A DNA stretch of 64,000 nt from a virus: the IMG/VR virus record IMGVR_UViG_3300028584_001238. One strand, 5' to 3'. Below are positions 12,822-49,547 of this stretch, one piece after another. A model generated the notes under the pieces. It was not told the origin of the DNA, ran no database searches, and saw only the letters and a program-made list of their open reading frames with translations. A program made the translations under genes and the position numbers. How positions within the stretch are numbered: position 1 is the first letter of the stretch; each line of letters begins with the position of its first letter.

Positions 12822-12851
12822 AAAAAAGGCCACTAAATAAATAGTAGCCTT
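12822..12851 (-). terminator. intrinsic terminator ending candidate ncRNA
   Basis: aaggctacta-loop-tagtggcctt followed by a T run on the minus strand. Confidence 0.75.
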
Positions 12852-13228
12852 CTTTGTAAATAAGGAGTCAGGCGGCGATGAAAGCCATTTGGTAAAGACC
12901 TGACACACAACCTGCATGGTGGAAACAATTCAGTTGTATTATCCAGTTGAGGTTCCTTTTTAATTAGGAAAGCTCGGGGTAATGTCAGGAAGTTTATCTG
13001 AACTAAATTCACTTCGCCGGTCTTTTTTTGACTACACATCTTTTTGTGTGTAATCTCATTTTTAAGCTCATGTCCTCTGCAAAAGATCCCTTAGCAGAAC
13101 ACTACCTTTGATTTTTTTAAGCAAAACAACACAGAATTCAAGGCTAAACTGTTAGTTGTCGTCCGCTTTCCACATCCAGTAATAACACACGCAGGAGTTA
13201 TTACTGAAATCTTTTATAACCGTAATAA
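12825..13228 (-). ncRNA. candidate ~400-nt structured RNA of unknown class
   Basis: Bounded by a near-consensus promoter and a terminator; many stems whose G-U pairs work only on the minus strand; no convincing protein ORF. Confidence 0.55.
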
Positions 13229-13234
13229 TATGAG

Positions 13235-13263
13235 ATTATAACAAATAACACTTAAAAAGTCAA
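13235..13263 (-). promoter_or_regulatory. strong sigma70-type promoter
   Basis: TTGACT-17 nt-TATAAT. Confidence 0.8.
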
Positions 13264-13265
13264 TG

Positions 13266-13820
13266 TTAAATAGCCATGATTTCTTTTTCTTTCTGAGTTA
13301 ACAATCCATCAATAGTCGCCATCGTCTCATCAACGTCTTTCTGAATGGAATTACTCAATCGTTTTTCATCGTTTTCGTTGATTTCTTTATTCTTCAATTG
13401 TTTCTTATAGGCAGTAAAAGCATCTCTACGAAGATTACGTACTACAATGCGAGCACTTTCAATGTTTTGACGTAACTGCTTGATATACATTTTACGGGTT
13501 TCTTCGGTCAGTGCTGGTAACGGGACATAGATATTGATGCCAGTATTTGAAGGATTTAAGCCTAGTCCAGCGTTCAAGATAGACTTTGTGATGGCTCCTA
13601 CCGATTTGGGGTCAAATGCAAGCACTTTGAGTGTGCGAGCGTCTTCTACAACGATGGTTGCCATTTGTTTAAGTGGTGATTTTGCATTTTGGTATTCAAC
13701 AATGACTGAATCCAGTAAGCTGGGATGTGCTCGACCTGTTCGAATCTTAGCCAACGTAATCTTTAAAGACTCAATGGCTTTTGATAATTCTTTTTGTGTT
13801 TCTTTTTTAACATTAGTCAT
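13266..13820 (-). CDS. frr: ribosome recycling factor
   Basis: IRTGRAHPSLLD, LGLNP, P.LTEETRK, ARIVVRNLRRDA, KEKEIM motifs; 184 aa from ATG 13820. Confidence 0.95.
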   Translation of the reverse strand: MTNVKKETQKELSKAIESLKITLAKIRTGRAHPSLLDSVIVEYQNAKSPLKQMATIVVEDARTLKVLAFDPKSVGAITKSILNAGLGLNPSNTGINIYVPLPALTEETRKMYIKQLRQNIESARIVVRNLRRDAFTAYKKQLKNKEINENDEKRLSNSIQKDVDETMATIDGLLTQKEKEIMAI

Positions 13821-13847: not shown

Positions 13848-13878
13848 AGAAAAGCACCGAATGGAAACCATTCAGTGC
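13848..13878 (-). terminator. terminator/attenuator hairpin between leader ORF and frr
   Basis: gcactgaatgg-ttt-ccattcggtgc 11-bp stem followed by TTTTCTT. Confidence 0.7.
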
Positions 13879-13906
13879 AGTTAACAAATATAAATGAAAC
13901 TATGAT

Positions 13907-13927
13907 TTAAGAAGCATCGCTACTCAT
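13907..13927 (-). other. 6-codon leader ORF MSSDAS upstream of frr
   Basis: AAGGAGG-ACTT-ATG AGT AGC GAT GCT TCT TAA, downstream of a TTGTGA-17-TATAAT promoter (13963-13991). Confidence 0.65.
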
Positions 13928-14005
13928 AAGTCCTCCTTATCTATAATTGGTTCAACTCGGTCATTATACGACAATCAATGATCTATCACAAGTTTTTTTT
14001 GAAAT

Positions 14006-14814: not shown

Positions 14815-14835
14815 TTAACGTAAAAATTTAGACAT
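14815..14835 (-). other. 6-codon leader ORF MSKFLR
   Basis: AAGGAG-8 nt-ATG TCT AAA TTT TTA CGT TAA after a TTGCAT-17-TATTAT promoter (14892-14920). Confidence 0.6.
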
Positions 14836-14948
14836 AATGAGTTCTCCTTTAAGTAAGTTAATAAAATTGCGTTGTTTGCTTTAAGATATTCATAATACCT
14901 AATTTTGGACTTTAATGCAACATATTTTTTAATGTTGCTGTCAAAAAT

Positions 14949-16385: not shown

Positions 16386-16459
16386 GTGTTGCTTTAATCA
16401 TTTGGTGGAGGGCGTTAAATTGCCACTTAAAAAAACCGCACCGCTTGATTTATTTCCAT

Positions 16460-16766
16460 TCTAATATCATCATCTATCATAAGTTTAATTATCTAATAGT
16501 TGTTGACTACGGCATGGGCAGCTCACCTCCGAGCACTTCATTTTAAACAATTTTAAAGTGAATGTTTATGTGTTTGTTATACTCTAATATTATATCATCA
16601 ATTTAATTATCTAATTTTAGTGTATTACGGCATTCCTAGTTCACCTCTGGCACTTATCTAATTATCAAGTGGTTAATGTTTATTTTAAAGCTAGTATCAT
16701 CATATTAAATAGTATCATTCTCTAATTTGATTACTTACTCCATCGGTAGTTCACCTCGGGCACTTA
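16460..16766 (-). repeat. three degenerate ~110-118-nt repeats, each with SD plus start-codon-stop minigene
   Basis: AAGTGC-N2-3-GAGGTGA-N7-ATG CCG TAG (16507-16515), ATG CCG TAA (16625-16633), ATG GAG TAA (16735-16743), each followed by ATTAGA(T/G)AAT and TGATGATA. Confidence 0.85.
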
Positions 16767-16820
16767 ATTAGTATAACTGGTTGTTTTCGTTAGGGTTCTT
16801 GTTCTTGTCTTGATGTGTCT

Positions 16821-16849
16821 ATAATACCGAAAACCGTTCCTTATGGCAA
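16821..16849 (-). promoter_or_regulatory. sigma70-type promoter for minigene transcript
   Basis: TTGCCA-17 nt-TATTAT. Confidence 0.65.
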
Positions 16850-38391: not shown

Positions 38392-39390
38392 TTAATGAGC
38401 GTGATGGTTATCGTCAACTTTATCAGATTTTTCTGCTACTTCCTTTTTATGCACTTCGGGCTGCAAGGTGATATGGTTAATCTGAAACTTTTCAGACAAC
38501 ATCAATTGAATATCAGCTAACACTGTTTCCCATTCATTCATGCTAGAAATTTCAACGTGTGCAGACAATGAAATGTGTTCCGAAGTCATAGACCAAATAT
38601 GGAGGTCATGTACAGAGATAACATTAGGAATTTCATTCAAATTCTTACCGACTTCGACATAATCAATATGTTCTGGAACACCTTCTAAGATAATTCTGGC
38701 TGTTTGTTTCAATAAATTGTAAGTAGGTACAACCAAGATAAGAGCAACCACAATAGAAATAATCGGATCAAAGACGGTCATGCCAGTGAAATAAATAATC
38801 ACACCTGCTGCAATAGCGGCCACGCTACCCAGTAAATCACCAAGCACATGGAGAAATGCACCTCGGGTGTTTAACGAATGGCTGTGTGAGTGCAATAACC
38901 ATGCTGCAAAGATATTAATAGCCAATCCGATGGAAGCAATCCAAATAATTGTAGTTGATTCAACGGGCCTTGGATTAATAATACGCTCAATACCTTCATA
39001 GACCAAGAAGACAATCACCGCAATCATGAACAAACCGTTCAGTAATGCACCAATAATCTCCCAACGGCCATGTCCATAGGAATATCTATCATCGGCGGGC
39101 TTTTGGGCAAGAATTGCCATAATTAAAGCCAACATCAATGAAGATGAGTCGGTTAACATATGGAATGCATCAGAAATCAAAGCCAATGAGCCAGAAAACC
39201 AACCACCAATCATTTCAACAATAGCAAAAGCAAAGGTAATTCCCATAATAATGGCAAGCTTTTTGCGGCCACTGGATTTTTGTTTATTGATTTCATGAAT
39301 GTGAAGACTAGGACAATGATCATGATTTGCCACGTTAACCGTGTCATGAGCATGTTCGTCGTGAGAGTGATGAGAATGGAAGCTATGCAT
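38392..39390 (-). CDS. zitB: cation diffusion facilitator Zn/Co/Cd exporter (ZitB/CzcD-like)
   Basis: SLALISDAFHMLTD, YSYGHGRWEI..AL.NG, AFLHVLGDLLGS, VHDLHIWSMT, HITLQPE; His-rich N-terminus. Confidence 0.9.
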   Translation of the reverse strand: MHSFHSHHSHDEHAHDTVNVANHDHCPSLHIHEINKQKSSGRKKLAIIMGITFAFAIVEMIGGWFSGSLALISDAFHMLTDSSSLMLALIMAILAQKPADDRYSYGHGRWEIIGALLNGLFMIAVIVFLVYEGIERIINPRPVESTTIIWIASIGLAINIFAAWLLHSHSHSLNTRGAFLHVLGDLLGSVAAIAAGVIIYFTGMTVFDPIISIVVALILVVPTYNLLKQTARIILEGVPEHIDYVEVGKNLNEIPNVISVHDLHIWSMTSEHISLSAHVEISSMNEWETVLADIQLMLSEKFQINHITLQPEVHKKEVAEKSDKVDDNHHAH

Positions 39391-48668: not shown

Positions 48669-49547
48669 ATGATAACAAAAACAAATATGGTAATATTATT
48701 TCTATTTGGAATATTTTCAACATTAATTATAAAAAACTATCCAATCAATCCAGTGGCGATAGATCTTAAAATTGTCAGTATCAAGTGGTATGGTCTTTTG
48801 TTTTTGACAACAATTATAATTGCTAGAATAAAGTTAGTTAAAGATATAACAAAAATAGACAATAAATTAAAAGAAGACGATGCTTACATGCTTGTTTTAT
48901 ATGCTGTATTTGGGATGATTATTGGTGCAAGAATTTTATATCTAATCGTATACCAAGGATACCCACTGGAACATTATTTTAGTCATCCTCTCGACATTAT
49001 TGCTTTATGGAAAGGAGGCGTCTCTTTTCATGGCGGGTTAATTGGTTTAGTTATGGGCGTCTGGTTCTATGCTAGAAAATATAAAATACAGTTTTTGAAA
49101 TGTATGGACATTATAGCATTAACAGCTCCAATAGGTTTAGCAGAGGGTCGATTAGGAAACTTTATCAATGGAGAATTATGGGGGAAAGTGACGGACGGGC
49201 CATTTGGAATAGTCTTTCAAAATGCAGGGGCATTGCCAAGACATCCATCACAAATTTATGAAGCCATATTAGAAGGTGTTGTTTTATTCTTCATATTGAA
49301 AGCGTATTCGATGAAAGAAAGAACAAAAGGATCTATATGTGGATTGTTCATGGTTATGTATGCGATATTCAGATTTTCAGTTGAATTTGTTAGAGAACCC
49401 GATGCAAATCTAGGCTATATTGCTTTTGGTTGGTTAACAACCGGTCAACTATTATGTGTTCCAATGTTGGTGATTGGAATAATGGTAATGAATTATGATT
49501 CAATTTCGAAACAATTGTGTCGTCACCAAATAATAAAAGGAGCTTAG
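48669..49547 (+). CDS. lgt: prolipoprotein diacylglyceryl transferase
   Basis: WYGL, GAR..Y, W.GG.SFHGGLIG, GRLGNFINGELWG, RHPSQ.YE, RF.VEF.REPD motifs. Confidence 0.93.
   Translation: MITKTNMVILFLFGIFSTLIIKNYPINPVAIDLKIVSIKWYGLLFLTTIIIARIKLVKDITKIDNKLKEDDAYMLVLYAVFGMIIGARILYLIVYQGYPLEHYFSHPLDIIALWKGGVSFHGGLIGLVMGVWFYARKYKIQFLKCMDIIALTAPIGLAEGRLGNFINGELWGKVTDGPFGIVFQNAGALPRHPSQIYEAILEGVVLFFILKAYSMKERTKGSICGLFMVMYAIFRFSVEFVREPDANLGYIAFGWLTTGQLLCVPMLVIGIMVMNYDSISKQLCRHQIIKGA

Follow-up and report, generated by a model that had tools for sequence, protein, structure and literature searches.

A conserved short leader ORF and a predicted terminator precede the ribosome recycling factor gene of a possibly phage-borne element

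The frr locus and the element that carries it

Ribosome recycling factor (RRF) is essential in bacteria. The window, by which we mean the whole 64-kb stretch of DNA that was analyzed, carries on its minus strand a gene for this factor (frr, 13820-13266), and its 184 aa product was matched to Pfam PF01765 over the full length of the family (1.2e-52, profile positions 2-164 of 164) and was collinear with the E. coli RRF structure 1ek8 (3e-47). The ribosome-binding arginines are kept, with the VRN.RRDA motif present here as VRNLRRDA. Together with its relatives (P0001-P0017, 99-68% identity) the product forms an RRF clade of its own. The next matches outside this clade were ordinary gammaproteobacterial RRFs of at most 54% identity, one of which is encoded in a canonical rpsB-tsf-pyrH-frr-uppS cluster. 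An RRF scan of metagenome contigs returned, among the matches listed, distant bacterial-type genes only, and neither the frr clade nor the leader described below was found in the GTDB species genomes. With respect to phage genomes, a DNA search of INPHARED with frr gave no match, and the protein matches to RRF in this database mostly look like host DNA inside phage records. The only clearly phage-borne frr in INPHARED was that of Sinorhizobium phage Phosso, which has no MSSDAS-type leader.

Huge phages are known to carry RRF genes (PMC7162821). For the element studied here the phage-borne status of frr is unproven. Four related contigs are classed in IMG/VR as provirus, with an estimated completeness of approximately 50-59%, and the same frr was found on metagenome contigs of 0.83, 1.28 and 1.86 Mb. 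Four related pieces of 150-190 kb gave no match to Terminase_6N, matches to T4 Y00F and to PHROG were weak only, and a search for the T4-type capsid protein Gp23 matched no genome, controls included. Most ORFs have no family; the window carries an lgt gene and a cation-efflux gene. The interest of the finding would increase rather than diminish if the replicon were cellular and had no frr besides the leader-bearing one.

The preliminary description of this locus had reported a promoter, an AAGGAGG sequence, an MSSDAS ORF, a 28-nt spacer, an 11-bp hairpin with a U-tract and a separate ribosome-binding site for frr, and all of these elements were found, on the minus strand. The predicted leader promoter (13991-13963) consists of a -35 element TTGTGA (13991-13986), a 17-nt spacer and a -10 element TATAAT (13968-13963), with 10 of 12 matches to a sigma-70-type consensus. 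It is followed by the Shine-Dalgarno (SD) sequence AAGGAGG (13938-13932), 4 nt 5' of the ATG of the leader ORF (13927-13907), which reads ATG AGT AGC GAT GCT TCT TAA and encodes MSSDAS. Only two AAGGAGG-N3-9-ATG sites occur in the 64-kb window, the leader being one of them. With a ribosome-binding site of its own (AAGGAGG-N4-ATG), six codons and coding-type substitutions, this reading frame is a probable leader ORF.

Immediately after the stop codon is the motif N-TCA-TAR (13906-13900; A TCA TAG in the window), the first part of an AT-rich stop-to-hairpin spacer of 28 nt (13906-13879) whose variable part comprises 13899-13879. The predicted terminator hairpin (13878-13854) has an 11-bp stem, GCACTGAATGG / CCATTCGGTGC, with a 3-nt loop and a folding energy of -15.6 kcal/mol, and the U-tract TTTTCTTATTT (13853-13843) lies directly 3' of it. 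The frr ribosome-binding site AAAGGA (13833-13828) is located 9 nt past the U-tract, and the frr start codon ATG (13820-13818) is 33 nt past the hairpin. No further copies of the leader were found within the 64-kb window, in which trpS has a plain promoter and no leader. The arrangement in front of frr is far beyond chance: all related loci whose upstream sequence is long enough show it, with conservation confined to sharply bounded islands.

Conservation of the leader among frr loci

Upstream DNA of members of the frr clade was taken from IMG/VR and from metagenome assemblies, and leader loci were counted where RRF identity was at least 80% and enough upstream sequence was present. The leader device was found in 21/21 qualifying frr loci, which represent 14 distinct sequences in three lineages: A (the window, L001, L002, L024, L036 and L038), B (L003, L004, L013, L015, L025, L026 and L029) and C (L037 only). 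A search of IMG/VR for the leader returned none beyond four frr loci. The alignment of the 14 distinct leaders (A5) covers three lineages, so few of the substitutions in it are independent. Conservation of the leader among frr genes had been put forward in the preliminary description as a check; it holds within the clade at RRF identities of at least 80% and does not extend to L009 or to Phosso. L009, the most distant member of the clade (68% RRF identity), is without the leader and has a terminator followed by a promoter, TTGCTT-17-TATAAT, directly 5' of frr. Since L009 places a promoter directly before frr and has no leader, the leader and a direct promoter are alternative solutions for frr.

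Comparison of lineages A and B separated the leader into fixed and free parts. The segments TAAGGAGG, ATG, TAA and TCATA, the 11-nt U-tract and the frr SD sequence are 100% identical between them; identity falls to 38-53% in the 5'UTR, in the spacer from SD to ATG, in the variable spacer, in the loop and in the frr 5'UTR. The AGGAGG core was invariant across the 14 distinct leaders, as was the post-stop TCATA, after which R is G or A, the N before it being free. The variable spacer has an identity of approximately 38% between lineages, and the stop-to-hairpin length is 27-29 nt in 14/14 leaders. The U-tract was invariant in 13 of the 14, L037 having TTTTATTATTT. A TTG..-17-TAT..T promoter pair is present in all three lineages with 24-25 nt from the -10 element to the SD sequence, and despite this fixed position identity in the promoter spacer and the 5'UTR is no more than about 44%.

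A separate promoter downstream of the hairpin, which the preliminary description had regarded as evidence against control by the leader, was not found in the gap between the end of the hairpin and the frr ATG, which measures 24-34 nt across the 14 leaders. We also considered a promoter concealed in, or extending over, the stretch from the hairpin to frr, and no promoter-like site was found. Because the gap is 24-34 nt and contains no such site, frr appears to need read-through of the hairpin. In lineage B a bidirectional terminator is located approximately 230 nt upstream of the leader promoter (TTGCAA-17-TATTAT), which leaves this promoter as the only visible source of frr transcripts. In the window, compared with lineage B, a deletion has placed another, homologous promoter at that position, and a promoter 24-25 nt from the SD sequence has thus been retained by different means. 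The upstream context varies between loci and the leader always stays attached to frr. This, together with the arrangement in L009, indicates that the unit is most probably the control region of frr and not the tail of an upstream operon or an independent gene. The comparative evidence supports the leader as a likely dedicated, conserved cis-acting element of frr.

The leader encodes MS[S/G]DAS in all relatives that have it. Codons 2-6 are 76% identical between lineages A and B, and the five variable columns alter one residue: Ser2 is encoded by AGT or TCT, which is a switch of codon family, residue 3 is Ser or Gly (AGC, AGT, GGA or GGC), and Ala5 is GCT or GCG. When columns were permuted, at most one amino-acid-variable position with no stop codon was obtained in 0.99% of trials (P = 0.0099), which supports the view that the leader ORF evolves as a coding sequence would. 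Lineage C is nucleotide-identical to L001 over the ORF and TCATAG; since silent positions are kept here too, constraint at the RNA or DNA level may add to the ORF conservation signal. An internal control was provided by a second strong-SD mini-ORF (14849-14815), which lies approximately 900 nt away and 5' of a neighbouring 111-aa gene. Its position is kept in the relatives and its peptide is not (MSKFLR, MSIL, MSII), and the frr leader peptide therefore seems to be specifically constrained. MS[S/G]DAS contains small residues only and does not resemble known arrest peptides or motifs.

The post-stop TCA-TAR provides a second Ser codon and a second stop codon in the +1 frame, and it falls within the footprint of a ribosome halted at the leader stop. 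As a speculation, a sliding ribosome could come to rest on TCATAR with its P-site tRNA-Ser, and the stop codon there would keep elongation from resuming. An overlapping +1-frame ORF, M[L/R]L[K/N]S-stop, was considered as a second peptide and rejected: no usable SD sequence precedes it (14-15 nt spacing), and residue 2 alternates between L and R.

With respect to the hairpin, 98.7% of cells of the A5 alignment were paired over its 11 pairs. Two pairs show compensatory changes, the closing G-C becoming A-U and pair 10 occurring as G-C, G-U and A-U; a further pair has a change in one of its two bases and remains standard, and the loop varies without constraint. The hairpin is apparently under structural selection, with the signature of a terminator stem and not of a loop-specific protein site. 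It formed in every minimum-energy structure, both in the folds of single sequences and by RNAalifold, and it is among the most stable terminator-like hairpins of the window. An intrinsic terminator, consisting of this 11-bp hairpin and the U-tract, is predicted between the leader ORF and frr. It would be unidirectional, because the opposite strand has no T-tract at the hairpin. The usual terminators of the window are bidirectional A-tract/T-tract hairpins (AAAAAGNCC...GGNCTTTTT), unlike the frr leader hairpin, whose interrupted U-tract (UUUUCUUA) has no A-tract partner of the sort usual among the terminators of this genome.

Other structures were sought and rejected. RNAalifold and the per-sequence folds gave no conserved antiterminator or alternative pairing linking the ORF to the hairpin, and the predicted folds upstream of the hairpin differ between lineages. 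Classical attenuation of the trp type by alternative hairpins was set aside, no conserved pairing being in competition with the terminator. A pairing of the SD sequence with the U-tract (UAAGGAGG with UUUUCUUA, 8 bp) was proposed by RNAalifold; it is invariant in A and B, which makes it uninformative, and it is broken at three pairs in L037, the only lineage that varies. A stem between the start codon and the post-stop motif (UAUG with CAUA) would have 4 pairs only, all of them invariant, enclosing a loop of 20 nt, and we do not find it credible. A boxA/nut-like reading of GAUGCNUCUUAA with the hairpin was dismissed, as the loop is not conserved. By eye, GAUGCNUCUUAA matches the rrn boxA at 7-8/10 positions, and by hand estimate this is about the chance level in a 150-nt AT-rich stretch. 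Pairing in trans between the leader and either the adjacent 410-nt RNA or the minigene array was no better than that of shuffled sequence.

A steric attenuation model and its alternatives

The device is probably a translated-leader/terminator gate for frr. We commit to an attenuator that would act sterically, through the position of the ribosome, and not by alternative hairpins. The promoter would start a transcript whose first feature is the very strongly initiated six-codon ORF, MS[S/G]DAS. With the ribosome promptly removed at the UAA, the 27-29 nt spacer would be free and the hairpin would form, and transcription would end as a leader RNA of approximately 110 nt. A ribosome which had moved beyond the stop codon would enter the spacer and hinder closure of the base of the hairpin, and the polymerase would run into frr. 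This forward-moving ribosome would be an unrecycled post-termination 70S, and since this is the best documented such species in bacteria, recycling capacity would be the likeliest single input. The outcome would be negative feedback, with little RRF activity leading to more frr mRNA. We infer translation of the ORF, termination at the hairpin, the effect of ribosome position on termination and the RRF signal; the functional claims rest on E. coli precedents.

The spacing of the leader can be compared with measurements in E. coli. At tR2 a translating ribosome almost fully represses termination if its stop codon lies a few bp upstream; termination increases as the distance grows, up to a maximum that is not attained before approximately 30 bp, with values of less than 10% for a stop codon at 5 bp and about 90% at 28 bp (PMC4824070). 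Because 27-29 nt matches these stop-to-terminator data, the leader stop would sit at the shortest distance that puts a correctly halted ribosome out of the way of the terminator. The footprint of a ribosome at the leader stop ends approximately 18 nt short of the hairpin, and 33-35 nt separate the P-site codon from the first hairpin base. A collided ribosome-RNAP complex spans 34 nt (bioRxiv 10.1101/2020.03.01.971028), and the P-site-to-hairpin distance would thus equal this span. With a defective release factor the ribosome would remain at the stop codon, still 18 nt away from the hairpin, and for this reason the geometry may fit an RRF-specific sensor better than a generic stall sensor.

Upon RRF depletion, post-termination 70S ribosomes slide past stop codons into 3'UTRs; Saito et al. 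described sliding 'over time', and downstream expression in E. coli was little affected (PMC7538156). RRF also clears ribosomes carrying very short (di- to tetrapeptide) peptides, and bulky residues stabilise short-peptide ribosomes (PMC10192219); MS[S/G]DAS has no bulky residues. As the ribosome at the stop codon is approximately 18 nt short of the hairpin, the model needs either sliding or a polymerase pause, within approximately 1 s, before the polymerase reaches the U-tract. The preliminary description had suggested that slow recycling at the leader stop alters termination. As an alternative fold this did not survive, the ribosome being 28 nt away and no conserved antiterminator having been found, and the idea of a recycling sensor is retained here in a modified, steric form which rests on the E. 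coli data. The full steric mechanism including the RRF input is put forward tentatively as possible, and it is doubtful that the sensed quantity is specifically recycling (RRF) activity. A natural recycling sensor in which unsplit ribosomes slide, UCA-UAR may catch tRNA-Ser, the terminator is blocked and frr is turned on is rather unlikely.

Other readings account for part of these observations. The hairpin could be a full terminator overridden by an antiterminator of the element or by a modified RNA polymerase or one of its own, as with lambda PR'-tR', so that frr would be timed by a factor and the ORF would load ribosomes, protect the RNA or block Rho. The layout of promoter, short RNA, strong terminator and gene is what this would require, the hairpin is highly stable with no alternative structure, and the elements use strong-SD mini-ORFs elsewhere with no conserved peptide. 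However, across the three lineages the 5'UTR contains no conserved candidate loading site (44% identity; L037), the free hairpin loop is not a specific protein-binding site, and the peptide conservation, the TCATAR motif and the fixed spacer length are left unexplained; we consider such antitermination improbable. About as improbable, if not a little more so, is a ribosome-mediated attenuator with another input, whose hexapeptide would arrest the ribosome or slow termination as MsrDL, TnaC and PepNL do. The signal could be a small molecule or an antibiotic, a host defence toxin or general translation stress, and RRF would be raised when translation is disturbed rather than when RRF is low. Here the peptide with its stop context is accounted for, the whole being conserved sequence-specifically, and there are precedents in the hexapeptide MsrDL, which stalls at UAA and relieves an intrinsic terminator (PMC10314930), and in PepNL, which arrests at its own stop codon (PMC11890864). 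A ribosome arrested at the stop codon would nevertheless be 28 nt from the hairpin with no structure to transmit the stall; moreover the small residues of the peptide are unlike known arrest motifs, and the switch of Ser codon family speaks against sensing of a single tRNA isoacceptor.

Two further readings were considered. The unit could be a stand-alone minigene RNA of approximately 110 nt that engages ribosomes or tRNA-Ser/Asp/Ala, or that encodes a bioactive hexapeptide, with frr expressed by leakage; this would liken it to the lambda bar minigenes or to the minigene array at 16390-16849. That the unit has a promoter and a terminator of its own, that no SD type in the window is stronger, the conserved peptide, a minigene RNA family 2.5 kb away and the finding that RRF drives peptidyl-tRNA drop-off on short ORFs (PMC10192219) are all in keeping with such an RNA. 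Yet the unit occurs once per element and always abuts frr, with none elsewhere in IMG/VR or GTDB; it has no sequence relationship to the minigenes nearby; no promoter-like site for frr was found, so that the unit is not independent of it; and precisely in L009, where a promoter of its own serves frr, the unit is missing. We regard a stand-alone RNA as quite improbable. A constitutive leaky terminator, giving a low fixed level of frr with no sensing and an ORF kept for mRNA stability or by nucleotide constraint, is very improbable. Partial read-through is plausible with the interruption in UUUUCUUA and no A-tract partner, and silent sites of the ORF are conserved as well. Against this, promoter strength alone could set a fixed level, as in L009, and the conserved peptide, the stop context and the 27-29 nt ruler would have no explanation.

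In the literature searched, no leader, feedback control or autoregulation of frr was found, and we rate the frr leader as a variant of leader-peptide attenuation not described before for frr. If the steric mechanism is true, RRF would have its first described autoregulatory circuit, and no earlier attenuator would have read ribosome sliding in place of stalling. The device would also provide a portable cassette of approximately 150 nt that turns recycling capacity into transcription, and a genetic read-out in vivo for recycling and post-termination sliding, which are now visible by ribosome profiling only. Such a circuit would further illustrate the way in which giant phage-like elements adjust the translation factors encoded on them. 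Even with another input the leader would be a minimal attenuator with no antiterminator, and its stop-to-hairpin ruler is directly testable.

Comparison with known leaders and minigenes

The trpL, ivbL and hisL leaders have in common with the frr leader a translated ORF and an intrinsic terminator upstream of the regulated genes. They use competing 1:2 / 2:3 / 3:4 hairpins and cognate regulatory codons, and in the frr leader neither a conserved alternative pairing nor an informative codon run of the trpL type was found. Among genes for translation factors, prfB is autoregulated by a +1 frameshift at an in-frame UGA and infC through its AUU start codon. The logic would be alike, in that the mRNA carries a miniature substrate of the encoded factor and low activity raises synthesis. 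These two act translationally inside the coding sequence, whereas the frr device would act on termination in a separate leader.

The lambda bar minigenes resemble the frr leader in combining a strong SD sequence with a very short ORF, and RRF, EF-G and RF3 are known to clear ribosomes from very short ORFs (PMC10192219). The bar ORFs have two codons, act in trans by sequestration of tRNA as peptidyl-tRNA and are not gene leaders. In contrast, the frr leader has six codons and a conserved peptide and is physically tied to frr.

Steric attenuation of the pyrBI type (Roland et al., cited in Li et al. 2016, PMC4824070) needs no antiterminator hairpin. A close leading ribosome blocks closure of the terminator stem, an effect which declines steeply as the distance grows and is gone at approximately 30 nt (PMC4824070). 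In pyrBI the ORF runs through the attenuator and the signal is UTP-dependent pausing of the polymerase. The frr leader differs in that its ORF ends before the terminator, and a ribosome would have to pass the stop codon to interfere. Ribosome dwell at a leader stop codon is known to change attenuation in E. coli (Baggett et al. 2017, PMC5373646).

Of the systems described so far, msrDL-msrD of streptococcal mefA/msrD (Fostier et al. 2023, PMC10314930) comes closest. The two leaders have no sequence similarity, and the gated protein MsrD is an ABC-F protein, in place of RRF. MsrDL (MYLIFM) is a hydrophobic peptide that depends on a macrolide in the exit tunnel, whereas the frr peptide is small and polar and no ligand is implied. 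The MsrDL ribosome stalls at the stop codon and obstructs the terminator directly; in the frr leader the hairpin is 28 nt from the stop. Common to both are a strong ribosome-binding site, a six-codon leader ending in UAA and an intrinsic terminator before the gene. The residues of the msrDL leader matter (PMC10314930), and the frr leader peptide is conserved. MsrD is a translation factor that acts on ribosomes and exerts negative feedback on its own leader (PMC10314930), and the frr leader would gate a translation factor too.

Leader stop codon and terminator hairpin

The motif N-TCA-TAR lies immediately 3' of the stop codon of the MSSDAS leader mini-ORF (minus strand, 13900-13906) and was invariant in all 14 distinct leader sequences, which come from frr-clade loci of three lineages. 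When read in the +1 frame, TCA-TAR supplies a serine codon and then a stop, with which M[L/R]L[K/N]S, an overlapping ORF, is closed. A ribosome that slides or hops might possibly use the motif as a landing site for its tRNA-Ser. With respect to the leader hairpin, it differs from the majority of the terminator-like sites on both strands of the whole window, which are of a stereotyped bidirectional type, AAAAAG(A/C)CC...GG(T/G)CTTTTT. The leader hairpin has no A-tract, and its stem is longer and of mixed sequence.

Transcription beyond frr

A near-consensus promoter with a TG element, TTGACT-17-TATAAT, was located on the minus strand at 13235-13266, directly after the frr stop codon. This promoter was assigned to an RNA gene of approximately 410 nt (12822-13263), which ends at a terminator (12855-12822). 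As frr lacks its own terminator, transcripts reading through the leader would extend through frr and into the RNA gene up to the 12855-12822 terminator.

Mini-ORF and non-coding units upstream of frr

A second mini-ORF with a strong SD (AAGGAG-N8-ATG, encoding MSKFLR-stop) was found on the minus strand at 14815-14849. Its end is 19 nt short of the start ATG of a 111-aa gene (14797-14462) and a short way upstream of that gene's own SD. Counterparts are present in related loci from IMG/VR or metagenome assemblies, at 1976 in L001, 1772 in L002, 1199 in L003, 1344 in L004 and 3199 in L010; the position is kept in these relatives but the peptide is not, with MSKFLR in the window and MSIL or MSII elsewhere. 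On this sequence comparison the mini-ORF looks like a position-dependent uORF, serving ribosome delivery or unfolding, and a peptide-dependent role is not favoured.

In lineage-B relatives an extra unit of approximately 550 nt with no called gene separates a Y00F-like gene from the frr leader (L010, 4047-4599), starting with a TTGTGA-17-TATAAT promoter and ending in a bidirectional terminator. L003 and L004 also contain the region, and in L002 and L024 it has a different length. This unit is missing from the window, whose leader promoter shows homology to the promoter of the unit. No Rfam match to the unit was obtained; it is probably another non-coding RNA. In L009, an RRF relative at 68% identity without the leader, the 960 nt preceding frr (2040-2900) contain no called gene and close with a terminator (about 2868-2905), after which comes the promoter of frr. 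This stretch has the appearance of a structured RNA; an Rfam search of the region gave no match at E <= 0.01.

The replicon

The contigs behind L010, L011 and L033 measure 0.83, 1.28 and 1.86 Mb, indicating a very large replicon. It has a GC content of approximately 33%, most of its ORFs are ORFans, and it bears trpS and frr together with lgt (48669-49547 in the window) and a CDF cation-efflux gene (38392-39390 in the window). Pieces of it are labeled 'provirus' in IMG/VR, and comparison with GTDB species genomes gave no match. Candidate identities are a giant phage, another element or an unbinned cell.
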